In this document: positions 4,019 through 59,676 of the stretch, one piece after another
How positions within the stretch are numbered: the stretch's first letter is position 1
Layout of the letters: each line of letters begins with the position of its first letter
From: an uncultured Candidatus Saccharibacteria bacterium
GTDB lineage: Bacteria; Patescibacteriota; Doudnabacteria; UBA920
Direction: 5' to 3'
Assembly: GCA_964512925.1 (NCBI GenBank)
Contig: CAZEKH010000001.1
Location: forward strand, 136,226-200,225
Length of the DNA: 64,000 bases
Notes under the pieces: generated by a model
Seen by the model: only the letters and a program-made list of their open reading frames with translations
Database searches by the model: none
What the model was told of the DNA's origin: nothing
Program-made: the position numbers and the translations under genes

Positions 4019-6280
4019 TTATTTTGGCCATTTGGATACCATCAGGAGTCCGCCTTTGTCTAGGAGCTTGTGTTCGTTTAAGATTTGCCAGATGTGTTCG
4101 GTAACAAAAGGCATAAAGGGGTGGAGGAGTCTGAGAATAGTATCGAGTATATAGTATAAAGTATTTAGCGTGTTGAGTTTTAATGCTTCGTCGGCCAGTT
4201 GAATTTTACTGGCTTCAATATAGACGTCTGCAAATTCGTGCCAGACAAAGTGATAGATTTCTTGTGCAGCTTCGTGCAGACGGAAGTTCTCCAGGTGTTC
4301 GGTGGAAGATTTAATAAGATTTTCTAATTTGGAGAGGATGTCTTTGTCGGCATCGGTGATTGGCTGCACCCCCTCCCTTAATCCCTCCCCCATCTGATGG
4401 GAGAGGGAAATGGGCGAGGGAGTGTTCTCCTCAGCAGGGGAGGGTAAAGAGGTGAGAATGAAGCGAGCAATATTCCAAAGCTTGTTGGCAAAATGCTTCA
4501 TACCTTTGATTTTGTCTTCAGCAAGTGGAATGTCGTTGCCGGCGGCTGAGGAAAATATTAAAGCAAATCTTAAGGCATCGGTCCCATAGGTATCTATAAC
4601 AGCCAAAGGGTCTATGACATTGCCTTTGGACTTGGACATTTTTTGTCTGTCTTTGTCGCGTACTAGTCCGTGAAGGTAGACTTTTTGAAAAGGAGCTTTG
4701 TTGGTGCGGTAGTAGGAAAGCATAACCATCCTGGCTACCCAAAAGAAAAGTATGTCCCAACCAGTTTCCATAACTTGGGTTGGAAAGAAACTTTTAAAAT
4801 CCAACCTCTCCCCATCCCTCCCCTCAGAAGGGGAGGGGGAAGTAGAAGATTTGCGCTTTTGGTCATTTGCCATAAGTGTGGCAAAAGGCCACTGGCCGCT
4901 AGAAAACCAAGTGTCAAAAGTATCTGGGTCTTGAACTAAAACTTTAGAGTTACATTTTGGGCAAATTGTCTCGGTGTTATTTGTGTCAATTATAAATTCG
5001 GGGCAATTTTGGCAATATTTTGCCGGGATGGATATTCCCCACCAAATCTGTCTTGAGATTGGCCAGTCACGGATGTTTTCCATCCAGTGGCGGAAGATTT
5101 TTTCAAATTTTTCTGTGACAATTTCTACTTCTTTTTTATCCAGTGCTTGTATAGCCATATCGCGCAAACTCGGTCTCCCATCTTTGAGCGGTTTGGTCAT
5201 AGCTATATACCACTGCTGAACAATCTGGGGTTCGATGATTCTGCTGCACTTGTAGCAAGTTTGGACATTGTGTTTATAGTTTTCGTCTATTTTTTCCAAA
5301 AGCCCTTTTTCTTTGAGTTTTTCTACTATTTTTGGTCTGGCTTCTTCAGTGCGCATCCCAGCAAATTCTCCGGCGATAGGTAGAAGCTTGCCGCGAAGAT
5401 CTATAATCTGTTCAAAGTCCAAGTTATGACGTTTAGCAATGTCAAAGTCAACAGCATCGTGCCAGGGGGTGATGGTCATAACTCCACTGCCAAACTCCAT
5501 ATCCACTGCCTTGTCTTTTATGATTGTTGCCGTAATTTTGCCATTGATCCACTCCACATTTTCCAGTTTTTGTCCGTGCTTATACTGCTCGTATCTTTTG
5601 TCGTCCGGATGCATAACTACGTACTTGTCGCCGAACTTAGTTTCAGGACGCGAGGTGCCTATGGTAAAAGGTCCGTATTTAAAATAGTAAAAAGGCTCTG
5701 TGCGTTCTTCGTATTTGGTTTCAAGATCTGCAAGTCCAGTTTGGTGTTTGCTGCACCAGTTGCAAATCCGGCCATCGCGGTAGACAAGGCCGTCTTCGTG
5801 CATTTTTTTAAAAGTGTCGTAAACAACTTTGACTATTTCTGGGTCCAAGGTAAAAATATTTCTACTCCAGTCACAGGAAGCCCCCAGACGTTTTAAGCTG
5901 TTTTCTGTTATGTGTTTGTTGCCCTGTACAAAGTCCCAAATTTCTTTGTAAAAGTCTTCGCGCTGCATCCCAAAACGGCTGCGACCTTCTTTTTCCAGCT
6001 TTTTTTCGTATACCACTTGGGTTTCAAAACCCGCGTGGTCAGTGCCAGGCTGCCACAGGGTTTTAAACCCTTGCATCCTTTTGTAGCGTATTAAAATGTC
6101 TTCAATTGTTACAAATAAAGCGTGCCCTACATGCATAGGCGCATTGGCATTTGGCGGGGGCATTATAATTGTGTAAGGCTCGCCCGTTAGGTTGTCCGGG
6201 TTAAAGTACCCAGAGTCTTCCCACATTTTGTAAATTTTGTCCTCTACTTCGTTTGCGTTGTAAGATTTTTGTAATTCCAT
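4019..6280 (-). CDS. valS: valine--tRNA ligase (class I aaRS); likely start is the internal Met MELQKSYN, the ORF track extends to 6355
   Basis: HIGH-type motif PPPNANAPMHVGHA and KMSKS motif KMSKSKGN. N-terminal YNANEVEDKIYKMWE. Carries two in-frame low-complexity insertions derived from palindromic repeats. Confidence 0.75.
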   Translation of the reverse strand: MELQKSYNANEVEDKIYKMWEDSGYFNPDNLTGEPYTIIMPPPNANAPMHVGHALFVTIEDILIRYKRMQGFKTLWQPGTDHAGFETQVVYEKKLEKEGRSRFGMQREDFYKEIWDFVQGNKHITENSLKRLGASCDWSRNIFTLDPEIVKVVYDTFKKMHEDGLVYRDGRICNWCSKHQTGLADLETKYEERTEPFYYFKYGPFTIGTSRPETKFGDKYVVMHPDDKRYEQYKHGQKLENVEWINGKITATIIKDKAVDMEFGSGVMTITPWHDAVDFDIAKRHNLDFEQIIDLRGKLLPIAGEFAGMRTEEARPKIVEKLKEKGLLEKIDENYKHNVQTCYKCSRIIEPQIVQQWYIAMTKPLKDGRPSLRDMAIQALDKKEVEIVTEKFEKIFRHWMENIRDWPISRQIWWGISIPAKYCQNCPEFIIDTNNTETICPKCNSKVLVQDPDTFDTWFSSGQWPFATLMANDQKRKSSTSPSPSEGRDGERLDFKSFFPTQVMETGWDILFFWVARMVMLSYYRTNKAPFQKVYLHGLVRDKDRQKMSKSKGNVIDPLAVIDTYGTDALRFALIFSSAAGNDIPLAEDKIKGMKHFANKLWNIARFILTSLPSPAEENTPSPISLSHQMGEGLREGVQPITDADKDILSKLENLIKSSTEHLENFRLHEAAQEIYHFVWHEFADVYIEASKIQLADEALKLNTLNTLYYILDTILRLLHPFMPFVTEHIWQILNEHKLLDKGGLLMVSKWPK

Positions 6281-6341
6281 ATGCGATCCTAATTTACGAA
6301 TTACACTCGAATGATCCGAATGTAGTTTGAATAATAAATTA

Positions 6342-6752
6342 TTAAAGATAGCCAAGTTGTTTAAAAAGTTTTCTTGAGGGCGGAACTATATCCATATCTT
6401 TTAAATTTTCAATTTTTACCCATTCAATTTTTTCTACTCCCTCGGGTTTTTGCGGCTGGCCTGAAACATAGGAGCAAAGAAAGTTAAAATATTTATATTT
6501 TGTTTGAACTCCATTTATATCTGGTTTTTCTTCTTCGCTTATACCAATATCTTGATCAGCTTTTATTTTTATACCAAGTTGTTGCAGGATTGCTTTTTCC
6601 GCAAATTCTTTTAAATTTATGTCTTGTTCAGTAAATTCAGCTCCGAACAAATACCAAGTTTCTTTGTAAGGCAGACTGCCTTGCGGCTTTTTACGCATTA
6701 GTACTTTTCCTTGGTTTTCAATGACACATATAGCTAGGCTTTTTGTTTGCAT
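6342..6752 (-). CDS. NUDIX-fold protein with degenerate Nudix box
   Basis: GAEFTEQ...EFAEKAILQQLGI aligns to the MutT Nudix box, but RE..EE is replaced by KA..QQ. Confidence 0.45.
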   Translation of the reverse strand: MQTKSLAICVIENQGKVLMRKKPQGSLPYKETWYLFGAEFTEQDINLKEFAEKAILQQLGIKIKADQDIGISEEEKPDINGVQTKYKYFNFLCSYVSGQPQKPEGVEKIEWVKIENLKDMDIVPPSRKLFKQLGYL

Positions 6753-7904: not shown

Positions 7905-7998
7905 GTTGCCTCACCCCCCAGTACTATTTAGTACGGGGCAAGCCAGCCCCCAGCCCGAACGCCGCAAGCGGGCAGGTCTCCGATGTCGGAGAGGGGGT
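7905..7998. repeat. composite GC-rich palindromic repeat (CCTCACCCC / CCCGAACGCC...GGCGGGCAGGTCTCC-loop-GGAGAGGGGG modules)
   Basis: Same modules recur at 48320-48390, 48660-48740, 49140-49205, 52142-52200 and 55830-55900, and inside pgm at 33590-33650. Confidence 0.7.
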
Positions 7999-12415: not shown

Positions 12416-12897
12416 TTTTCGGTTGCGGTTAATTGTCCGTCTGAATTTATTATGCCGATGAACTGGGTGTCGTTTTGGTAGTGTTTTAAAACAAAAGGTA
12501 TTGAGACCTTTGCATTTTTGGTAAACTCGGCGAGTGGCAAGTTGTCTATGGGGTAAAAATTCAGAGCGCCTTCGTTGGAGTCTAAATTGTTTGGGACTGA
12601 CAACAGCACTCCCGTGTGCCAGCAGATTATAGACAAAAGGTCCGGCCTGGTTGTTAAAACGGTTAATTTTAGCTTTAAATCGGAGATTTGATCTAGGGTA
12701 ATATGGCTTTCTTCCGAAAGTTCTCTGAGTAAAGATTTTTGCAAGTCTTCAGCTTCTCCAAGTTCCAACTCGGTCTTGCCGCCTAAAGTGGAAATCAGAT
12801 TCGGATCGCGCTTTCTTTCGGGTGAACGCTTCATTAGTAAAACTTCTTTTTTGTTTGGGTGTATAAGGATCAGACCGGTTCGGCATTCAATTTTCAT
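12412..12897 (-). CDS. NUDIX hydrolase
   Basis: Nudix box GGKTELELGEAEDLQKSLLRELSEES (GX5EX7REUXEE pattern retained). Confidence 0.6.
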   Translation of the reverse strand: MKIECRTGLILIHPNKKEVLLMKRSPERKRDPNLISTLGGKTELELGEAEDLQKSLLRELSEESHITLDQISDLKLKLTVLTTRPDLLSIICWHTGVLLSVPNNLDSNEGALNFYPIDNLPLAEFTKNAKVSIPFVLKHYQNDTQFIGIINSDGQLTATEK

Positions 12898-13141
12898 TTG
12901 ATTGGGTTTTTATTAGTTTAAGTTTTTTTATTCTTGACCATTTTTTAACTTCTGACTCGCGTTTTAGAGCTTTGTTTTTGCTTCGAAATTTTTCACTATA
13001 TACTATTTTTCCGCCGCCACGGCTTCTTGTGTATTTGGCGCCCTTGCCCGTGTTGTGAAGCAGCGCGCGCTTTTTTAGGTCATTTGTTGAACCGGAGTAG
13101 AGGCTTTTGTCTTTACAAAGGAAAATGTAGAAGTAATGCAT
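12887..13141 (-). CDS. small stand-alone GIY-YIG nuclease (COG2827/UPF0213-like)
   Basis: YFYIFLC...LYSGSTNDLKKRALLHN. GIY-YIG motifs within 84 aa. Confidence 0.7.
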   Translation of the reverse strand: MHYFYIFLCKDKSLYSGSTNDLKKRALLHNTGKGAKYTRSRGGGKIVYSEKFRSKNKALKRESEVKKWSRIKKLKLIKTQSNEN

Positions 13142-13246
13142 AAAAATATTATATCATCTTTAACTTGTGAAGATTGTAAAAAACCTATAAACTTTAGACA
13201 TAGTTAAAATATTGTAATATCCGCCTTTGGCGGGGAAAGAAAAAAT

Positions 13247-15487: not shown

Positions 15488-15727
15488 ATGTATTACTTAT
15501 ATATAATAAAAAGTAATATTAAAGACTGGCGTTATATAGGAATCACTGACAATGTTGAAAAAAGGTTAATTGAACACAATAAAGGTAAAACCAAATCAAC
15601 TAAAGCCTATATTCCATTTACGCTTATTTATAGAGAGACTTTTTCTAACAAGACCGATGCTAGAAAAAGAGAAATATATTTGAAGAAAAATTATAAAGCA
15701 AGAGAAGAAATATTTAGAAACTTATAA
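15488..15727 (+). CDS. small stand-alone GIY-YIG nuclease
   Basis: MYYLYIIKSN...RYIGITDNVEKRLIEHN. Confidence 0.7.
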   Translation: MYYLYIIKSNIKDWRYIGITDNVEKRLIEHNKGKTKSTKAYIPFTLIYRETFSNKTDARKREIYLKKNYKAREEIFRNL

Positions 15728-15741
15728 ACATTTTCTTTTGC

Positions 15742-15816
15742 GGCGCTATCATCTAATGGTTAGGATAAGTGGTTTTCATCCACTAAATCGGGGTTCGATT
15801 CCCCGTAGCGCTACCA
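15742..15816 (+). tRNA. tRNA-Glu (anticodon UUC)
   Basis: Cloverleaf with acceptor GGCGCTA/TAGCGCT, anticodon arm AGTGG-TTTTCAT-CCACT, T-arm CGGGG-TTCGATT-CCCCG, CCA encoded. Confidence 0.8.
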
Positions 15817-15829
15817 AAGAAAATGTTTA

Positions 15830-15985
15830 TAAAAAGTTAGGACAAGTGGTTTTTCCGCCAAAGGCGGACCCGCCTCTGGCGGGTATCCTGATCACACTAA
15901 ATCTGGTTTCAATTTTACAATTTAATTTATAGAAAGATTGATCCGCCTTTGGCGGACGATTCCCCGCCGTGCCCCGCATACGAGT
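15830..15985 (+). pseudogene. disrupted tandem copy of the tRNA-Glu gene (D-arm and 3' acceptor fragments split by hairpin insertions)
   Basis: TTAGGACAAGTGGTTTT and GATTCCCCG...TAGCGCTA match the upstream tRNA. The intervening sequence holds TCCGCCAAAGGCGGA and CCCCGCATACGAGTCCGCGAGTTATGCGGGG hairpins. Confidence 0.45.
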
Positions 15986-16046
15986 CCGCGAGTTATGCGG
16001 GGTAGCGCTATGACAAAAAACTCATCCAAACCGATGAGTTTTTGGT

Positions 16047-16385
16047 ATGAAAACAATGGGTCATGTCCCCATTGTTTTCCCTAGTGAGATGATAAAAAAA
16101 GAATCTGCTCCCGCGATTGAGGCTTTTAAAGAGAGAGAAGGAAAAGTTACGGGCTTGTACGAGGAATGGGACGGCTGCTTGATTGATGATATGTTAAATG
16201 AAGAAGGTAATGCTTTTGCTCAATATTATTTTGATTTCGAAAAAGGGCAGTTTCTAAATGACTACACAAATTTATTTGATGTAGCAGACCCACGCACCTT
16301 TGATGTTCCTTGCACCTGGGAAAATTATGAAAAGTTAAAAGGCGTTATTGATAACCGTTATAACCAATGGAAGAAGTCAAAGTAA
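16047..16385 (+). CDS. hypothetical protein (low-GC islet)
   Basis: 112-aa ORF in the ~33% GC region that follows the tRNA. Confidence 0.4.
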   Translation: MKTMGHVPIVFPSEMIKKESAPAIEAFKEREGKVTGLYEEWDGCLIDDMLNEEGNAFAQYYFDFEKGQFLNDYTNLFDVADPRTFDVPCTWENYEKLKGVIDNRYNQWKKSK

Positions 16386-17452
16386 AAAAACATTTTCTTA
16401 TAATAGCGTCACAGATAGCTGAGCTATATGTCATATTCTCATATTTAATGACTTTTCTAGCACGGAAGGGCACTGATTATTTTGAAGATATTTTGCTTCC
16501 TTTTATTTTGTTTTTAATTGCTGCGGTTGTCTTTTTTACCCAGATAAAGGCAATTGAAAAATTCAGAAAGTTAATAAGCTATATTTCAATAATAAGTATT
16601 ATTGTTTTATCCTATTTAGTATTTATTATTCATAATAAAGGGTACGATTATTTTCAACTTAATTGGTGGAATTTTGAATTTTACAAATATAGAAATCTAA
16701 TTATTTTTTTGTTTCTTATTGTTGGTTCCCAAGTTGTTAAGTTATTGGCTTTGAATATAAATAAACTAAGTTATCAGAAAATAGTTGAGTCTAGTAGGTT
16801 AAAAAAGTTCTTTGTTGTTACTGCTGTAATTCTTGTAGTTGGCATTGTTTTTGTCTTCGTTATGCAAAAGCTAGAGACACACAAGATTGAAAGAACAGGA
16901 ACCGAAGTAGTAAAAAGCATTGAAAAATTTAGGTCGCAATACGGGCGCTTGCCTGAATCACGGGCCGAAATGGGACTTCCTGACACAGAAAGTACACGTC
17001 CTTTTTATACAAAAATCAGCAACGATGAGTATGAACTTAACTACCCAATAGGTTTTGATGGGGGTTATGTATATTATTCAAAAATAGGAAAGTGGCAAGA
17101 CTATCCGTCGGGCGACTTTGGTTGTGCTAACGATGACTATCAATTACTCACATCTCCTAACGGTCAACATACAGCGCGATTATTCAGAAGGGATTGTGGC
17201 GCCACAACAGATTATTCAGGACACGTAACATTGGACAGCGAACCAATTTTTGTACTTAATCATTATTATGGTAAAACTATTGAAGTAAACTGGATTAACG
17301 ACACGCATCTTTTCATTCAATATGCGTATAAGGAATCACCTGACGACGTTTCAATTTTCAAAACAGAATATAAAGGTATTAAATTAGAATATTTCTACTG
17401 GCCTTGTATTGGCCCAGTAGATAAACACCCTAAAGGGTACTGTTTAGAATAA
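16367..17452 (+). CDS. hypothetical membrane protein with C-terminal soluble domain
   Basis: 4-5 N-terminal TM helices. Low GC. Confidence 0.45.
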   Translation: MEEVKVKKHFLIIASQIAELYVIFSYLMTFLARKGTDYFEDILLPFILFLIAAVVFFTQIKAIEKFRKLISYISIISIIVLSYLVFIIHNKGYDYFQLNWWNFEFYKYRNLIIFLFLIVGSQVVKLLALNINKLSYQKIVESSRLKKFFVVTAVILVVGIVFVFVMQKLETHKIERTGTEVVKSIEKFRSQYGRLPESRAEMGLPDTESTRPFYTKISNDEYELNYPIGFDGGYVYYSKIGKWQDYPSGDFGCANDDYQLLTSPNGQHTARLFRRDCGATTDYSGHVTLDSEPIFVLNHYYGKTIEVNWINDTHLFIQYAYKESPDDVSIFKTEYKGIKLEYFYWPCIGPVDKHPKGYCLE

Positions 17453-17467
17453 TAAATCCTATATAAT

Positions 17468-18052
17468 ATGGACTTAAAATTATTTAAAGAAAAACTAGAA
17501 AAGTTTGGCGTAATTTTTGAAGCTGGTTTAAACGATAAGGAAATATTGTTTGCTGAACAAAAATATCAATTTAAATTTCCACCTGACCTTAAACAATGGC
17601 TGCAATACGCATTACCCATTCAGCTAAAGGATAACCAAGGTATGAAATTCCCTAACTGGCGAAATTTAGAAAATAAGGATTTGAAATTCCAAATGGATGG
17701 ACCTTTAGAGGGCATTTTATTCGACGTGGAAAATAATAACTATTGGCTAAATGAATTAGGTAATAAGCCTGCTGATTTGGAAGAGGCTAAAAGTATTATT
17801 TCTGATGCTATTAACAAAGCACCTAAATTAATTCCAGTATACGGACACAGATATTTACCAAGCGAGCCTTTAGAAGAAGGGAATCCAATTCTAAGTGTGC
17901 ACCAGACTGACATTATTTATTATGGAAATAATCTATGGGGTTATTTAGATATTGAGTTTGGCTCTCCTGGACAAATGGTTATTTACGTTGGTGATTCAGA
18001 AGAGCCAAAAAAAATTAAGTTTTGGTCAAGAATTATTGAAAGTAACAAGTAG
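17468..18052 (+). CDS. SUKH/SMI1-KNR4 family protein (putative immunity protein)
   Basis: N-terminal LEKFGVIFEAGLNDKEILFAEQKYQFKFPPDLKQWL pattern typical of SMI1/KNR4 (SUKH-1) domains. Confidence 0.45.
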   Translation: MDLKLFKEKLEKFGVIFEAGLNDKEILFAEQKYQFKFPPDLKQWLQYALPIQLKDNQGMKFPNWRNLENKDLKFQMDGPLEGILFDVENNNYWLNELGNKPADLEEAKSIISDAINKAPKLIPVYGHRYLPSEPLEEGNPILSVHQTDIIYYGNNLWGYLDIEFGSPGQMVIYVGDSEEPKKIKFWSRIIESNK

Positions 18053-18056
18053 CTCT

Positions 18057-18749
18057 ATGTGGCCATTTAAGAAGAAAGTAAAAGAAACTCACATACTCAC
18101 TCCTAGACAAATTAAGGAGGCTCATAAGTTAATAACGACAAATAAGCAGTTATTAGCTGAGAGTCAGATGGCGGGCTGTTATTATTGTTTAGAAATTTAT
18201 CCCGCTAAGGAAGTCGAGGAGTTTTTGGAAGTAGAAAATACAGCACTTTGTCCCAAGTGTGGTATTGATTGTGTTTTAGGAGATAAAATTGATTTCCCAT
18301 TGAATAAAGAAGTCTTACAAGAATTGCATAACTTTTGGTTTTCAGACAGGGGCTGGTCGATATTTACTGAAGATAAAGACTCTAAAAAAGCAGATGTGTT
18401 TGTAAGAAATAAGATGACTAAAGATGACAGAAAAAAGATGCCTTGGATTTTAGAATTATTAGTAACCCCAAAGTTTGCGAATGATAACCTTTCGCAAGAG
18501 GAAAAATTAAAATTACACAGCTTTATTGATGATATAGATACTGAGCTAAGAGAGGTTCGTAAAGTAGAATCAATTGTTAAACTAAACTGGTTTGTATATG
18601 AAGAAGCCTTCTTTTGTTTAGACAAGCCAGATAAGGTTGATGAAATACTAAAAGAAGTTTCAAAAAAATATAGCCCTGAAATCACTTGGCAAACAAAACT
18701 TACGAATGACCCTAAGTGGGATTCCGTATCACACTATCTGAAAATTTAA
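18057..18749 (+). CDS. hypothetical protein with CxxC...CxxC zinc-ribbon-like motif
   Basis: ATG at 18057 (the ORF track's upstream TTG extension overlaps the previous gene). CYYC...CPKC. Confidence 0.45.
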   Translation: MWPFKKKVKETHILTPRQIKEAHKLITTNKQLLAESQMAGCYYCLEIYPAKEVEEFLEVENTALCPKCGIDCVLGDKIDFPLNKEVLQELHNFWFSDRGWSIFTEDKDSKKADVFVRNKMTKDDRKKMPWILELLVTPKFANDNLSQEEKLKLHSFIDDIDTELREVRKVESIVKLNWFVYEEAFFCLDKPDKVDEILKEVSKKYSPEITWQTKLTNDPKWDSVSHYLKI

Positions 18750-18901
18750 GATAGAATTATAAACCTCTCTTACCAAAGCCAAATAAGTTTTCCACCTGTA
18801 CAGAGCGGGTCTACCAAGAAATGCTTCTCAGCCTGTGATGGGGGATTTTTTCTTGATACAAAGTCCCACTTGCAAAGATCATCTTCGTTCACTTCGTTCA
18901 T

Positions 18902-18932
18902 AAAAAACCCCGACCTTGTGTCGGGATTTTTG
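18902..18932 (+). terminator. Rho-independent terminator
   Basis: AAAAAACCCCGACC-ttgtg-TCGGGATTTTTG. Confidence 0.8.
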
Positions 18933-18936
18933 TAAA

Positions 18937-18965
18937 TTGACGGTTGGCGACAAAAGGGGTATTAT
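18937..18965 (+). promoter_or_regulatory. sigma70-like promoter of htrA
   Basis: TTGACG, 17 nt, TATTAT. A second TATAAT lies 20 nt downstream. Confidence 0.5.
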
Positions 18966-19051
18966 GGTTTGTTAACAATTATTTCTGTATCGGGTATAAT
19001 ACGGTAAGGGTTGAGTTGAGGTTTTAAGAAAAAATAATTTAAAAAAATAGT

Positions 19052-20128
19052 ATGAACAAATTTTTAAAATACATAAGCATAGTAACTATTGTGTTGGGAG
19101 TGGTGTTTGTCGTACAAACCGGTGTAGCGCAGAACATTAAATTCAGCCCTATTAAGCCCCAGGCAAAGCAAAACGCTCTTTTAACTGACGAACAGCAGGG
19201 GATTTTGGCTGTGAGAAAAGCAAAGGCCAGTGTGGTCAATATAGTGGGCAGGAAAAACGACATTGGTCCGGGCAAGGTCATCTCCGGCATAGACATCACC
19301 AACGGCACGGGCATTGTCTGGTCGGCTGACGGGTACATAGTGTCCAACAGTCACGTGGTGGAAGATGTGGCTTTTGAATACGAAGTGGTGTTTGCGGACG
19401 GTTCTTCGTATCCCGCCAAAGTGGTGGGTAAAGACAAATACAATGACGTGGCGCTTTTAAAAATAGAAAGATCTGGGTTAACCTCTGCAACTGTGGGCGA
19501 TTCCGACGCTTTGGAAACCGGACAAACAGTCTTTGCTATCGGTAACTCTCTGGGTAAATATCAAAACACAGTTTCCAGAGGTGTAGTGTCGGGTTTGGGT
19601 AGGGCGATAGACATCGGCAGCGAAGCCAAGCCTTTGCCGCGTTTGCAAAACTTGATTCAGACTGACGCGGCCATAAACTTGGGAAATTCCGGCGGGCCTT
19701 TGGTTAATATGGCAGGGGAAGTGGTAGGGATGAATACGCTTATAGAAAACGACGCTGCCAGCATTGGGTTTTCGGTTCCTATAAACACTGTAAAAAAATC
19801 AGTGGAACAGCTGAAAAATTTCGGTAAAGCCTCCAGACCCTATATGGGCATCCAGTATCAAACCATCACTCCTGAAGCTAGGGTTCTGTATGGCTTTTCA
19901 GCTTCGAACGGAGCAGCGGTTTCCATAGTGGCAAAAAATTCTCCAGCTCAAAAAGCCGGACTGAAAGATGGAGATATAATTTTGGAAATAAACAGAGAAG
20001 TTTTGTCGGCGCAAAATGAGCTAGACAAAATCTTGACCAAATATCAGGCAGGGGACCAGATTTTGCTCAAAGTTTTGCGAGGTAAAAACACTTTGGAACT
20101 TTTACTGATTTTGGAAGAATATAAGTAA
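19052..20128 (+). CDS. htrA: HtrA/DegP-family trypsin-like serine protease with one PDZ domain
   Basis: Signal/TM anchor, His-Asp-Ser triad with GNSGGPLVN, C-terminal PDZ. Confidence 0.85.
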   Translation: MNKFLKYISIVTIVLGVVFVVQTGVAQNIKFSPIKPQAKQNALLTDEQQGILAVRKAKASVVNIVGRKNDIGPGKVISGIDITNGTGIVWSADGYIVSNSHVVEDVAFEYEVVFADGSSYPAKVVGKDKYNDVALLKIERSGLTSATVGDSDALETGQTVFAIGNSLGKYQNTVSRGVVSGLGRAIDIGSEAKPLPRLQNLIQTDAAINLGNSGGPLVNMAGEVVGMNTLIENDAASIGFSVPINTVKKSVEQLKNFGKASRPYMGIQYQTITPEARVLYGFSASNGAAVSIVAKNSPAQKAGLKDGDIILEINREVLSAQNELDKILTKYQAGDQILLKVLRGKNTLELLLILEEYK

Positions 20129-20319
20129 TTGAGCAAAAATAAGTAAAATTGACAAAATTGATCAAAATTTAATAAAACGGGACTTACGTATATGGTGTCA
20201 TTCCCGCGGAGGCGGGAATCTAGTTAGTATAACTGTGTTATTTATTAATAAAATTTACTCTGTCACGTCTATTCATCTTTGATAAAAAAAGACAATATGG
20301 ATTTTTAAAAGTGAATAGA

Positions 20320-48289: not shown

Positions 48290-49215
48290 TTTGTATAATT
48301 TTTTACATACTAATTAACTCCCCCAAGGCCCCCCGTCCGAACGCCCACGGCGGGCAGGCCTCTTTAAAAAAGAGGGGGGAATGAAGCGGGTAGGTTTGAA
48401 AAAGAGTGGAAAAAATATTACAGTCGTTGCAACCTCACCCCACCCCCTCTCCGATAGCGGAGAGGGGGAAGCGGATGCAAGATTCCAGCCGGAGTTTACC
48501 CCGATGAACATCGGGGCGGGAATGATACCTTTTCTATTTTTGTCATCCCCACATAACCGGGGATCTTGGTTTTTACCCTCTCCAATATGGGAGAGGGTGT
48601 CCCGATGAACATCGGGACGGGTGAGGTTTGAGCGATGGTGATAAAATATAAGTTGGTTTAATTTTCTAACATTGTTACCTCACCCCATCCCCCCGCCCGA
48701 ACGCCACAGGCGGGCAGGTCTCCCAAATGGGAGAGGGGGTAAAGAACGCATCATTCTCACCTAGTGGGAATGATATAGAAACGCGGAATGACGGAATATT
48801 TTTCCTATTTTCCCCAAGTTTCCCACATAGCTTTGCACAGGGGTTTTCCACTTTTGGGGGATAATTTTTGCTGTTTGTTGGGCTTTGACCAGAGGCAGGC
48901 TTTTGTGCCAAGATATAAAGACCACTTTTTACCCCCGTTAGAAGCAATCCGCCGTCAGGTGGATACCGAGCCTTTTTGTGCCCGGGCTTCTAACGGGGTG
49001 ATCTGGTTTGTGGGGACATTAACTCCCCCTGACCCCCTCTTTGAAAAAGAGGGGGAAATGAAAGGGGGTAGATTTGAAAAAGAGGGGAGAGGCTTAAAAT
49101 ATTACAATCATCGTAACCTCACCCCCCTACTTCGTTAAAACTTCGTAGGGCAAGCCAGCCCCCCGCCCGAACGCCCAAGCCGGGCAGGTCTCCGATAGCG
49201 GAGAGGGGAACTAAT
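48290..49215. repeat. ~0.9-kb non-coding repeat cluster
   Basis: Contains CCCTCTCC-loop-GGAGAGGG hairpins, CCGATGAACATCGG hairpins, CCCGAACGCC..GGCGGGCAGGTCTCC modules, a TGTCATCCCC..GGGGATC element and a 75-bp GGTGAGG..CCTCACC MITE-like unit. Confidence 0.7.
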
Positions 49216-50517: not shown

Positions 50518-50895
50518 TAATTTGCTGTCATCCCGGCCTTGAGCCGGGATCCAGGGTTATATGCAAAACGAATGTTATGTATACATCCTTGCAAACAAAA
50601 GAAACGGAACACTGTATGTGGGAGTGACCAATGACTTAATAAGAAGAGTTTATGAACATAAAAATGATTTAACAGAAGGCTTTACTAAAAAGTACCAGAT
50701 ACACACTTTAGTCTATTTTGAAAATACAGGAAATATAGAAAGCGCAATAAAAAGAGAAAAACAGTTAAAAAGATGGCAAAGACAATGGAAAATATCCCTT
50801 ATTGAAAAACAAAATCCGCAGTGGAATGAGTTATACTCTAACTTGACTTAACCCTGGATCCCGGATATCCGCCTAAGGCGGATTCCGGGATGACA
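50518..50895 (+). mobile_element. GIY-YIG gene bounded by inverted hairpin repeats
   Basis: Left TGTCATCCCGGCCTTGAGCCGGGATCCAGGGTT (50521-50553). Right AACCCTGGATCCCGGATATCCGCCTAAGGCGGATTCCGGGATGACA (50840-50887). Both are members of the same element family, in opposite orientation. Confidence 0.4.
50561..50851 (+). CDS. small stand-alone GIY-YIG nuclease (UPF0213-like) inserted between pilB and pilC
   Basis: CYVYILANKRNGTLYVGVTNDLIRRVYEHKN. Confidence 0.7.
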   Translation: MQNECYVYILANKRNGTLYVGVTNDLIRRVYEHKNDLTEGFTKKYQIHTLVYFENTGNIESAIKREKQLKRWQRQWKISLIEKQNPQWNELYSNLT

Positions 50896-52142: not shown

Positions 52143-52265
52143 TGCCCCTCTCCGAGCACGGAGACCTGCCCGCCGTGGGCGTTCGGGCGGGGGGTTAGGG
52201 TGAGGTAACAGTGTTTGAATATTAAATAAGCTTAAATTTTATTACCATCGCTTAAACCTCACCCC
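52142..52265. repeat. composite repeat including a 75-bp MITE-like element (GGTGAGGTAACAG...TTAAACCTCACC)
   Basis: Near-identical copy at 52870-52990. Related copies at 48610-48683 and 58930-59005. Confidence 0.7.
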
Positions 52266-52311
52266 AGCCCTCTCCCATATAGGAGAGGGAGTAAAAACAT
52301 TTCTGACAATT

Positions 52312-55096: not shown

Positions 55097-55795
55097 ATGG
55101 AATATACTTATATTTTAAAAAGTAAAAAAGACGGTAAAATGTATACAGGTCTGACCAGTGATCTACGGAAGCGTTTTAAGGAGCATAATGAAGGTTTGGT
55201 TCCTTCTACAAAGAATAGAGGGCCATTTAAGATAATTTATTATGAAGCTTGTGTAAATAGACAAGATGCCGCAAGTAGAGAGATTTTTTTAAAAACTGGT
55301 ATGGGAAAGAGATATATAAAAAATCGTTTAAAACGCTTCCTGTCTCTAACGGCTCAAAGAGATAGTGCTAGCACCGTTATAAACAGCTTGCCAAAGTCAA
55401 GCGAAGTTTTTAACGGTGGATATATCGCTTTAACTTCCGTCATCATCGTTTCTTTATTGCTCCTGACTGTCATCACCGCTTTAAGCTCTGTTAACTATTT
55501 TTCCCGTTACAACATATTGGAAAACGAATATAAGGACAGAAGTTTTGCTTTGGCTGAAGGCTGTGTGGATTATGCTATAGGAAGACTGGCGGGAAATAGT
55601 AATTACATCGGTAATGAAACAGTAAACATCGGAGTCGGAACTTGTCAGGTGGCGTCAGTTTCTTCCGGGGCTTTTCCTAAAACTATCAGCACTGTCGGAA
55701 TTTTTCCACCCACGGCTGCAAAAAAAAGTTATACCAAACTTCAGGCAGTTGTAAGTTCAAGTTTCGCCATCAGTTCTTTTATAGAAAATCCATAA
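55097..55795 (+). CDS. GIY-YIG nuclease domain fused in frame to a pilin-like hydrophobic C-terminal half (possible insertion-generated fusion)
   Basis: First ~90 aa are GIY-YIG (YTYILKSKKDGKMYTGLTSDLRKRFKEHN). The remainder has GGYIALTSVIIVSLLLLTVITAL and an internal TTG that could start a separate minor-pilin ORF. Confidence 0.5.
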   Translation: MEYTYILKSKKDGKMYTGLTSDLRKRFKEHNEGLVPSTKNRGPFKIIYYEACVNRQDAASREIFLKTGMGKRYIKNRLKRFLSLTAQRDSASTVINSLPKSSEVFNGGYIALTSVIIVSLLLLTVITALSSVNYFSRYNILENEYKDRSFALAEGCVDYAIGRLAGNSNYIGNETVNIGVGTCQVASVSSGAFPKTISTVGIFPPTAAKKSYTKLQAVVSSSFAISSFIENP

Positions 55796-58779: not shown

Positions 58780-59100
58780 CCCTTGAGGGGGAGGGTTAGG
58801 GAGAGGTGATGCAGTGAATTTTTTTTCATCCTCGCGACTTGTCCTTCAGCAGTTTGAACGAAGGAGGAATGTGGGGATCTTGGTTTTTTGCCCTCTCCGA
58901 TATCGGAGAGGGTGTCCCGATGAACATCGGGACGGGTGAGATTTGAGCAATGGTGATAAAACATAAGTTTATTTAATTTTCTAACATTGTTACCTCACCC
59001 CTGACCCTCTCCGAAAGCGGAGAGGGGGAAGAGGATGCAAGATTCCCGCTGGAGTTTATCCCGATAAACATCGGGGCGGGAATGACAGCATTAAATGAAA
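58780..59100. repeat. second copy of the ~230-bp composite repeat unit (circularly permuted relative to 48437-48683)
   Basis: 58872-59005 matches 48553-48683. 59005-59095 matches 48437-48527, both at high identity. Confidence 0.75.
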
Positions 59101-59201
59101 AAAACCATAAATTTTGTGCAAAACCAGAGGATAAAGGGTGTATAAAACTCTTTGCAAAACAAGGCTTTTTATGGTAATATAAGTATATTATCAGCAAATT
59201 T

Positions 59202-59576
59202 ATGGTAGATATTACATTAAAAGCAATTGAGCAATTATTAGATCGGAAGTTAGAGCCGATTGTTGTTACATTGGATGCGGTTCAGGAAACAGTATCAGGT
59301 CATACTGAAAAGTTAGATAAATTACAAAAAGTAGTTTCTAACCATACTGAAATATTGGTTAAGCACTCAGAAAAACTTGATAATTTGGAGAAGATGGTTT
59401 CTGGACATACTGAGATTTTAAATTCTCATACTAAAATTTTGGATGGCATTAGCAAACAGCTTGTGGCTTTGTCTCAGGACAAGGCGGCAATGATAGAAAG
59501 ATTGGACAGGCATGAGAAAATCATTGAAGCTTTGGCAGCTAAGTTGAATTTGGACATCAAACATTTTTTTGTATAA
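59202..59576 (+). CDS. hypothetical coiled-coil protein with ~11-residue HTExL repeats
   Basis: Promoter TTGCAA..TAATAT upstream. Repeats SGHTEKLDKLQ / SNHTEILVKHS / SGHTEILNSHT. Confidence 0.45.
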   Translation: MVDITLKAIEQLLDRKLEPIVVTLDAVQETVSGHTEKLDKLQKVVSNHTEILVKHSEKLDNLEKMVSGHTEILNSHTKILDGISKQLVALSQDKAAMIERLDRHEKIIEALAAKLNLDIKHFFV

Positions 59577-59676
59577 GAAATTAGAAGAAAGTTTTTAAAT
59601 ATTAAAGTTTGTTACCTCACCCCAACCCTCTCCGAAAACGGAGAGGGGGTTTGGCCAGAAAATTAACAGAAACAAA

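Follow-up and report, generated by a model that had tools for sequence, protein, structure and literature searches.

Integration at the tRNA-Glu gene

We analyzed a 64,000-nucleotide stretch of DNA (the window) from an uncultured Candidatus Saccharibacteria bacterium, in which an intact tRNA-Glu(UUC) gene at 15742-15816 (+) is followed by a broken second tRNA copy and a low-GC islet of four open reading frames (ORF1 to ORF4). We estimate with a probability of roughly 60% that the DNA from 15817 to 18816 is a decayed, recombinase-less remnant of site-specific insertions, left by tandem accretion at the attachment site (attB) of this tRNA gene. The gene, with its UUC anticodon and an encoded CCA end, was called by ARAGORN and by Rfam (RF00005, 62.5 bits against a gathering score of 29), and this tRNA-finder check agrees with the preliminary description of the window, which had read the tRNA as intact. 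The recombination core, CTACCA, occupies 15811-15816 at the 3' end of the gene.

Relatives were obtained by an exact-sequence metagenome scan for the tRNA and by look-ups of homologues of the islet proteins; their housekeeping proteins were 56-74% identical to those of the window. By its own housekeeping genes, the window belongs to Patescibacteria and stands near genomes labelled Magasanikbacteria. In two lineages (L091 and L094/L098), large serine recombinase genes with Resolvase, Recombinase and Zn_ribbon_recom domains run convergently into an identical tRNA-Glu, and the last ten recombinase codons, GSATGNRTPI*, are read from the 3' part of the tRNA. Furthermore, one species provided both an empty and an occupied site. 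In its 496-kb contig L102, the tRNA-Glu is followed after 165 nt by a homologue of ORF2, and in L103 an element of ~10.5 kb lies between the tRNA-Glu and the ORF2 homologue, carrying the recombinase, two DNA methylases and an HTH/Peptidase_M78 pair. Alignment of the L102 and L103 junctions gave attB as GCGCTACCA joined to CAAAATTC, attL as GCGCTACCA joined to CTTAAAATC, and attR as ...AAGTTTTCCACCCGTACAGAGCGGGTCTACCA joined to CAAAATTC (in a shorter form, ...GGGTCTACCA joined to CAAAATTC). The core common to these junctions is only CTACCAC, which is as short as expected for a serine recombinase. A recombinase gene was present within the insert in L091, L098 and L103, and the gene content past tRNA-Glu was different in every relative examined.

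Synteny was also followed through EngB in the species representatives of GTDB, where the best matches were 50-65% identical, too remote for a useful comparison, and none had a tRNA-Glu beside EngB. In L092 (1-7101), genes for an HtrA-like protein and EngB flank the unit of GIY-YIG gene and tRNA-Glu on swapped sides relative to the window, so that the tRNA locus is the pivot of a rearrangement. A viral origin was considered and rejected, as the tRNA 3' half and the 58-nt core described below were both absent from IMG/VR.

A 58-nt boundary sequence and its repeat family

The distal boundary of the islet is a 58-nt sequence at 18759-18816 (+), ATAAACCTCTCTTACCAAAGCCAAATAAGTTTTCCACCTGTACAGAGCGGGTCTACCA, corresponding to the conserved right end of the serine-recombinase element (nhmmer E=5.6e-18). 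It is identical to attR of L103 at 55 of 58 positions, and at 47 of the last 48. It ends in a second CTACCA core (18811-18816), exactly 3000 nt past the CTACCA of the tRNA itself, so the core is found at both edges and the distal edge is an attR like that of L103. The sequence that follows (AGAAATGCTTC...) resembles the present trailer of the tRNA (AAGAAAATGTTT...). Considering that the end is non-coding and the proteins of the two hosts are only ~65% identical, its near identity implies that it is either mobile between hosts or held by the recombinase that binds it. The recombinases overlapping the same tRNA-Glu, the empty and occupied sites, and this end at the islet edge bear out the integration hotspot that had been proposed at this locus.

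The window holds a single copy of the sequence (nhmmer). With a profile built from it, 14 distinct copies were detected across 7 genomes, bracketing units of one or two genes and uniformly oriented within each locus. At four tRNA-Glu loci (the window, L088, L092 and L102/L103), units ending in the 58-nt sequence lie just downstream of the tRNA. The order in L088 is tRNA-Glu, two genes, repeat, a SUKH gene (67% identical to ORF3), repeat, a SnoaL-like gene, a degenerate repeat and an IS3 transposase. In L102, the ORF2 homologue and a gene for a 186-aa protein stand between the tRNA and the repeat. Five copies in L039 bracket an HTH protein, a two-gene ABC transporter, a PsbP-like protein and a C39-like peptidase, and L034 shares with L039 the first unit, encoding an HTH_35 protein of 205/206 aa, before the units differ. 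Behind each copy lies a trailer-like module consisting of a terminator hairpin, TTTTTGATTTGGTTTTAT and GTTTTCCAAAA, and the left ends of the L103 and L091 elements are built alike. The repeats are located at 9781-11525 in L088, 727-5336 in L039, 1604-2446 in L034, 4360-4417 in L092 and 11372-11429 in L102. A reverse transcriptase gene (RVT_1, 83 bits) is present at the end of the five-repeat array, at 5470-6483 (-) of L039.

Three other interpretations of the distal edge were tried and rejected. Outside CTACCA, the 58-nt repeat is not recognizable as a decayed 3' half of tRNA-Glu, since 325 of 2000 shuffles reached the same similarity. A third tRNA-Glu fragment at the distal edge was not found either: local alignment of the tRNA against 18740-19060 gave a score of 17, which is background, with no direct repeat of its 3' part, and the 58-nt end occupies this place instead. 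The motif GTTTTCCA, taken at first sight for relic anticodon arms, occurs without variation in both the 58-nt repeat and the trailer modules; it is enriched ~30-fold downstream of tRNA-Glu and is not enriched across the window.

One family of large-serine-recombinase elements that circulates among Patescibacteria of this clade attaches at the 3' end of tRNA-Glu(UUC) (...GCGCTACCA), and these observations suggest a mechanism of accretion there. Every insertion would put DNA between the CTACCA of the tRNA and its trailer, and each inserted unit would terminate in the conserved 58-nt sequence, itself ending in CTACCA. Because the left end of a unit resembles the tRNA trailer, the tRNA junction would remain a usable target, and older units would be pushed outward by tandem accretion. 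In the window, an inner unit (15817-16010) would have been gutted to 19 nt and a partial tRNA-Glu copy, later invaded by the GC-rich hairpins of the genome, and the outer unit (16011-18816) would consist of a terminator, a low-GC operon of four genes and the 58-nt end. As no recombinase is left, the outer unit would be fixed, or movable only in trans; we infer both this mobilization and the order of the insertion events. The empty site would join the tRNA CTACCA straight to AGAAATGCTTCTC, with the junction ...GTAGCGCTACCA + AGAAATGCTTCTCAGCC. A circle of the whole insert would join 18816 to 15817 (...GAGCGGGTCTACCA + AAGAAAATGTTTATAAAAAG), and a circle of the outer unit alone would read ...GGGTCTACCA + TGACAAAAAACTC.

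The repeat arrays also allow for integron-like cassettes, in which the 58-nt sequence would be the analogue of attC and the tRNA-Glu 3' end that of attI, with small units moved in trans by a serine recombinase as independent mobile cassettes and not as debris of larger elements. Such cassettes would account for the 14 copies in the same orientation around one- or two-gene units of 0.8-2 kb, for the SUKH gene standing alone between two copies in L088, for the shared HTH_35 unit of L034 and L039 followed by differing units, and for a repeat conserved far better than its surroundings. However, no cassette was observed at more than one position or in circular form, and the genes within the units lie in either direction. 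Unlike attC, the 58-nt repeat has no conserved hairpin, and no consensus pairs were obtained from its alignment. In addition, the only proven insertion (L103) is a recombinase-bearing element of 10.5 kb, and the arrays may simply be scars of accretion. We regard the cassette explanation as unlikely.

Integron cassette arrays and CALINs (attC clusters without an integrase) similarly have short units, a site of ~60 nt in one orientation and a fixed insertion point, and the 58-nt arrays, like CALINs, can exist without a nearby recombinase. In contrast to integrons, the arrays have no IntI tyrosine recombinase and no conserved repeat fold, their genes run either way, and the enzyme is a serine recombinase. 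Since it has neither a tyrosine integrase nor a folded attC, the locus is not an integron.

The broken tRNA-Glu copy

A partial second copy of tRNA-Glu was found at 15836-16010 (+), beginning 19 nt past the intact gene. It covers tRNA positions ~18-76 without the CCA end, and its pieces are colinear with the tRNA. The first piece (15836-15853, GTTAGGACAAGTGGTTTT, 17 of 18 matches) runs from the D-loop into the anticodon loop, where it covers the first four bases, the second (15895-15914, 17/20) from the 3' strand of the anticodon stem to the 5' side of the T-arm, the third (15957-15966, 10/10) is the 3' strand of the T-arm, and the fourth (16002-16010, GTAGCGCTA) is the acceptor 3' strand. Positions 1-17 are absent, and no missing 5' fragment was found across the 64-kb window. 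An independent Logan assembly from another run (L107) was identical across the end of the GIY-YIG gene, the tRNA, the broken copy and the start of ORF1; the layout is therefore not an assembly artefact. The second copy noted in the preliminary description is thus real, colinear and reproduced, whereas the range given for it, 15830-15985, does not reach the acceptor piece.

The D-stem of the broken copy carries C25, as in the G10-C25 form of the tRNA in L088, L092 and L095, unlike the resident tRNA-Glu with its compensated A10-U25 pair. The copy is not a recent duplicate of the resident tRNA, because it carries the C25 variant. It is also not the flanking att repeat of the island, the functional boundary being the CTACCA core together with the 58-nt end. 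A terminator-like hairpin with 14-nt arms (93% complementary) lies right after the copy at 16013-16046 (+) and touches the start codon of ORF1, and the tRNA-Glu trailers of the relatives bear a hairpin at the equivalent position. On the distal side, an intrinsic-terminator-like hairpin is present at 18909-18925 (+) in the host trailer, upstream of the HtrA-like gene.

Four GC-rich hairpins interrupt the broken copy, and not two as had been described, although the interruption itself was described correctly. A hairpin search located a 30-nt double hairpin at 15854-15883, inserted between anticodon positions 35 and 36, with the halves 15854-15868 (TCCGCCAAAGGCGGA) and 15869-15883 (CCCGCCTCTGGCGGG), and a 15-nt hairpin, TCCGCCTTTGGCGGA, at 15942-15956 in the T-loop region. 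A further one of 31 nt, CCCCGCATA-N13-TATGCGGGG, separates the T-stem 3' piece from the acceptor 3' piece at 15972-16002 (1 match against 0.02 expected). Counting stems of at least 6 bp with loops of 3-5 nt, the window contains 71 perfect GC-rich hairpins, compared with 3-10 in shuffled sequences, and zero of them lie within the islet. Partial tRNA-Glu copies were also found upstream of the GIY-YIG gene in L092 (3233-3310) and L095 (533-600), where they comprise the 5' part. The L092 copy has a double hairpin of equal size at the same 35/36 anticodon position as in the window, and the 30-nt double hairpin of the L095 copy is located in the D-loop.

The matching size and position of the double hairpins in the window and L092, whose stems differ and yet pair perfectly, could suggest that the copy is a functional RNA, such as a tRNA with an intron, a split tRNA or a regulatory RNA resembling a tRNA. 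However, the copy has no 5' acceptor strand, no 5' strand of the D-stem and no CCA end, and with its four insertions it does not provide the full set of acceptor, D, anticodon and T arms. It was not called as a tRNA by ARAGORN, with or without introns, or by Rfam, which also gave no match to a known RNA family here or at the 58-nt end. The partial copies of L092 and L095 retain different parts of the tRNA. Furthermore, no intact tRNA with such an insert was found in 1.4 Mb of related DNA, where five 'intron' calls of ARAGORN were tRNAs with a long variable arm, and the intron-bearing reading was rejected for this reason. A functional RNA at this position is close to refuted.

REP/REPIN doublets, Rickettsia palindromic elements and yeast mitochondrial GC clusters are dispersed palindromic elements that are likewise short, GC-rich and often paired. 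Like them, the hairpins of the window occur at ~10 times the chance frequency and invade non-essential DNA. They differ in their units of 15 nt (a 6-bp stem with a 3-nt loop) arranged as 30-nt doublets, and in their location in the loops of partial tRNAs, with a matching position in two lineages.

GIY-YIG genes beside tRNA genes

The GIY-YIG gene that had been reported upstream was confirmed at 15488-15727 (+), ending 14 nt before tRNA-Glu (PF01541, 56.1 bits). Its product has 79 aa and consists of the catalytic domain only; no DNA-binding domain was found by Pfam, and the score against the model of group I intron endonucleases was 16 bits, with a cut-off of 56. Homologous genes (50-54% identity) occupy the same position before tRNA-Glu in L092 and L095, and a GIY-YIG gene adjoins tRNA-Thr in L005. 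A 27-nt inverted repeat (15722-15748 / 15806-15832, 89% complementary) prolongs the acceptor helix of the tRNA-Glu of the window into its leader and trailer. The flanking arms ATAAACATTTTC / GAAAATGTTTAT are common to this tRNA-Glu and to the tRNA-Thr of L005.

These genes raise the question of whether a selfish unit of GIY-YIG gene and tRNA cut or disrupted the resident tRNA-Glu and supplied a complete copy. Such a unit would have produced the broken copy and the flanks that the tRNA has now, and the islet would be unrelated older DNA. Consistent with this, the gene adjoins tRNA-Glu in the window, L092 and L095 and tRNA-Thr in L005, and is absent at the tRNA-Thr of L001; the 5' partial tRNA-Glu copies of L092 and L095 lie just upstream of it; the same arms surround two different tRNAs in the window and L005; and the resident tRNA and the broken copy are different alleles (A10-U25 and C25). 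Precedents are T4 SegB in a tRNA cluster (PMC2330249) and tRNA-dependent lysogeny (PMC10865867), which likewise show GIY-YIG beside a tRNA, presence and absence at an orthologous site, and a disrupted tRNA copy next to a complete one. However, the proteins found here have only ~80 aa with the catalytic domain alone, and unlike free-standing GIY-YIG homing endonucleases, the 79-aa protein has neither a DNA-binding domain nor a phage context. No 5' tRNA fragment exists in the 64-kb window, whose partial copy lies downstream of the gene, as opposed to the upstream copies of L092 and L095. Moreover, six of the ten GIY-YIG genes found do not adjoin a tRNA, and three of the four positive cases came from tRNA-Glu searches, which is an ascertainment bias. 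We consider this explanation improbable. The same data tenuously hint at another mobile process, in which one tRNA copy is disrupted and an intact one supplied, and we treat the hairpin and GIY-YIG observations as leads rather than findings.

Combining all of these features, a clade-wide system could be imagined in which serine-recombinase cassettes of integron-like type on tRNA-Glu, a 30-nt double hairpin inserting specifically in loops of tRNA-gene copies, and GIY-YIG genes of ~80 aa travelling with replacement tRNAs act together; we hold this to be rather doubtful. Its cassettes may be units with immunity genes, transporters and peptidases, each ending in the 58-nt site and shuffled in trans at CTACCA.

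In L005 (8178-8560), tRNA-Thr(GGU) is immediately preceded by a GIY-YIG gene, which is absent at the orthologous position of the related genome L001 (7650-7800). Both tRNA-Thr flanks differ between L005 and L001, and the complementarity of leader and trailer is particular to each genome. The window has three more GIY-YIG genes, at 12887-13141 (-), 50543-50851 (+) and 55097-55795 (+). A CCGCC-NNN-GGCGG hairpin lies upstream of the first at a distance of ~80 nt (13221-13233), and one directly follows the second (50869-50881).

Genes of the islet and the question of immunity

The region 16001-19000 has the lowest GC content of the window (33.4-34.8%, against a window mean of 43%), and the islet itself has 34.7% compared to 43.3%. 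Two other ORFs of the window are equally low, as are several units bracketed by the 58-nt sequence in relatives. The four ORFs (16047-16385, 16367-17452, 17468-18052 and 18057-18749) have 33-37.5% GC and overlap or are at most 15 nt apart. They had been called orphans, which holds in that no toxin gene is nearby. They are not ORFans, however: ORF1 belongs to Pfam DUF7832, ORF3 has more than 400 homologues, and the ORF4 domain occurs in ~2400 clusters. Searches of ORF1 to ORF4 with the defence-system models of PADLOC gave nothing, and NCBIfam nothing useful.

ORF3 (17468-18052, +; 194 aa) is, judging by its homologues and Pfam, a protein of the SMI1/KNR4 (SUKH) family and a candidate orphan immunity protein. 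It has 420 homologues with 41-67% identity over more than 90% of the length, several of them named SMI1/KNR4 by NCBI, so its homology to recognized SUKH members extends over the full length. Among 20 aligned homologues, PF09346 was found in 16, SUKH_5 in 6 and SUKH_6 in 3, in agreement with the SUKH-type N-terminus that had been recognized in the letters. A homologue with 58% identity in L083 (Magasanikbacteria) starts 45 nt past the gene of a 1542-aa toxin that contains Transglut_core, LGFP repeats and, at residues 1443-1541, a C-terminal Ribonuclease domain (PF00545). This is the classic layout of toxin and immunity genes, and as in polymorphic toxin systems, the immunity gene directly follows a multidomain toxin with a C-terminal RNase. 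The 67%-identical homologue of L088 is the sole gene between two 58-nt repeats, 2.2 kb past tRNA-Glu.

Neither the neighbourhood of ORF3 nor the large ORFs of the window yielded a toxin gene. ORF3 falls in the same family as the described SUKH immunity proteins and orphan immunity genes (PMC3113570, PMC3482391) and, like the 'supernumerary' or isolated SUKH genes among them, lacks a cognate toxin. Isolated SUKH genes have been proposed to give immunity against non-self toxins (PMC3113570). Most likely, then, ORF3 and perhaps ORF1 would protect the cell against nuclease toxins from related bacteria. The locus differs from them in its host, an ultra-small bacterium of the episymbiont type, in which such systems have been little studied.

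ORF1 (16047-16385, +; 112 aa) matches DUF7832 (PF25191, 62.4 bits) over positions 40-112 of the 115 in the profile, ~39 N-terminal positions being absent. Its homologues in Bacillus and Priestia are 38-49% identical, and on a P. megaterium plasmid the homologue lies in an array with SMI1/KNR4, YxiJ and DUF3885 genes. No literature on DUF7832 was found.

ORF2 (16367-17452, +; 361 aa) has a multi-pass membrane N-terminus and a Cys-containing C-terminal domain, with a weak Pfam match to DUF5412. Its homologue 165 nt past tRNA-Glu in L093/L102 is 63% identical. In L090 (1073-2668), tRNA-Gln is directly followed by a DUF4265 gene and then by a 32%-identical homologue that also matches DUF5412; this is a further instance of the ORF2 gene family beside a tRNA.

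ORF4 (18057-18749, +; 230 aa) consists of an N-terminal four-Cys zinc ribbon (~residues 15-97) and a helical C-terminal half, with a weak match to DUF695. The CxxC...CPxCG pattern with four invariant Cys confirms the zinc-ribbon assignment made earlier. The zinc-ribbon domain is widespread (2405 representative clusters) and was modelled confidently, with pLDDT above 90, as opposed to the poorly modelled C-terminal half. It has no Pfam family, and a fold search of the PDB gave a best match of only E=2.9; sequence searches of the PDB with ORF4 and with the family profile of ORF3 gave no meaningful match. In L089 (6409-10387), the gene of a large serine recombinase extends over the 3' end of tRNA-His, and a homologue of the ORF4 zinc ribbon lies between this tRNA-His/serine recombinase pair and a tyrosine integrase adjacent to tRNA-Arg. 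P0122, a called protein of 132 aa in L089, starts with a spurious translation of the tRNA gene.

The label of orphan immunity genes, which had been applied to the islet, is therefore well founded for ORF3 as a SUKH protein, plausible for ORF1 from its neighbourhood in Bacillales, and unsupported for ORF2 and ORF4, which gave no evidence of immunity. The preliminary description had also expected membership in an immunity family together with an absence of conserved synteny in relatives. SUKH matches were indeed obtained, but homologues of ORF2 and ORF3 (63% and 67% identical) lie after tRNA-Glu in two relatives.

Origin of the islet

Several observations weigh against an origin of the islet by insertion and decay. 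The homologues of ORF2 and ORF3 are about as diverged as the housekeeping proteins, which fits long vertical residence, so these genes are long-term residents of a variable region and did not arrive in a single recent event. In the L102/L103 pair, the ORF2 homologue is not part of the recombinase element and is separated from the tRNA by the 165-nt trailer, and ORF1 to ORF4 thus need not have come with that element family. A recombinase gene or pseudogene was sought in the window by tblastn with three recombinases, and only the tRNA-encoded tail matched; no recombinase domain was found in ORF1 to ORF4 by Pfam. The sequence directly after the tRNA of the window, AAGAAAATGTTTAT..., is unlike the left end of the L091 element. 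All contigs found for the population of the window had an occupied site, exact look-ups of the HtrA-like and GIY-YIG proteins came back empty, and the 58-nt arrays of L034 and L039 have no tRNA-Glu nearby in their available DNA. The partial copies upstream of the GIY-YIG gene in L092 and L095 point to a different process. As to the cargo, the immunity function of ORF3 is assigned by homology, and unlike typical SUKH members, ORF3 itself scores 16.7 bits against PF09346 (E=0.012), under the gathering cut-off of 25.4, and gave zero matches at E<=0.01 when rescanned alone.

Some of these points would fit an ordinary tandem duplication of the tRNA followed by decay, with ORF1 to ORF4 inherited vertically and no mobile element at this locus. 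The housekeeping-like divergence of the ORF2 and ORF3 homologues near the tRNA-Glu of relatives, the failure to find an integrase in the window, and the presence of other equally AT-rich ORFs in the window are what such a history predicts. It does not explain why the 58-nt end at the islet edge matches almost perfectly the end of a proven mobile element in a host whose proteins are only ~65% identical, or why the broken copy is an allele different from the resident tRNA. In addition, neutral DNA as old as the split of the lineages would not have kept matches of 17/18 and 10/10, and the content past tRNA-Glu varies among all relatives examined. We consider a simple duplication very improbable and favor insertion at the tRNA-Glu attachment site with subsequent decay.

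Relation to known systems

A tRNA-linked integration hotspot with a decayed islet is a well-known kind of locus. With tRNA-gene islands formed by tandem accretion, the locus and its relatives share insertion at the tRNA 3' end, an atypical base composition, cargo that varies between relatives, empty and occupied sites in one species, and degenerate recombinase-less remnants beside the tRNA. Unlike the usual tRNA islands, the recombinase of the relatives is a large serine recombinase and not a tyrosine integrase, and the shared core is ~7 nt (CTACCAC) without a long tRNA-derived direct repeat, the boundary being the 58-nt end of the element.

In its mode of working, the locus appears most like the composite islands of SCCmec and other SCC elements, which are inserted by the large serine recombinases CcrAB/CcrC at the 3' end of rlmH. 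Both involve a large serine recombinase and a conserved gene that is targeted at its 3' end, and in both, units lie in tandem and are bounded by a recurring sequence; many of the units have no recombinase of their own and depend on one in trans. These features (the recombinase, 3'-end insertion and the repeated boundary) are distributed across the relatives, the window having one boundary copy and no recombinase. In contrast to SCC, a tRNA gene of Patescibacteria is targeted here, the units measure only 0.8-3 kb, and the repeated boundary is longer (58 nt) and accompanied by a trailer-like module.

The locus is new in that it occurs in Patescibacteria, that natural attB, attL and attR sequences are available for its CTACCA target in tRNA-Glu, and that a 58-nt boundary delimits units of very small size in several genomes. 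The genomes of Patescibacteria are tiny, and the cells are believed to live attached to others. To our knowledge, the gain and loss of accessory genes and the antagonism between kin are poorly understood in these bacteria. The natural pair of empty and occupied sites provides a defined attachment site in tRNA-Glu together with candidate large serine recombinases, which are potential genetic tools, and the 58-nt boundary allows the accessory cargo of several genomes to be catalogued by a simple search. The occurrence of immunity genes both paired with a toxin and alone implies contact-dependent antagonism among these bacteria. The cassette explanation, if true, would mean the integron idea with a switched class of recombinase; otherwise, the locus offers a well-documented case of island decay at a tRNA.

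Other repeat and hairpin elements

GC-rich palindromic hairpins of many repeat families are spread over the whole window, for example at 4367-4413, 7936-7996, 20195-20226, 48313-49209, 52160-52297 and 58885-59649. The TsaD homologue of L093 (4879-5997) holds a Gly/Pro-rich stretch (…ASPLKGEENEVPSPGGGGLGRGD…) that resembles the translation of a GC-rich repeat, an indication that repeats of this kind occur within coding regions too.

A conserved element of ~120 nt with two hairpins was observed immediately upstream of tRNA-Glu in L092 (3100-3232) and L096 (2624-2760, -), reading cccaaaaat.aggagcgca...gagcacgg.tttttggg... in both. Rfam gave no match to it at the gathering score, and it may be an undescribed small RNA.

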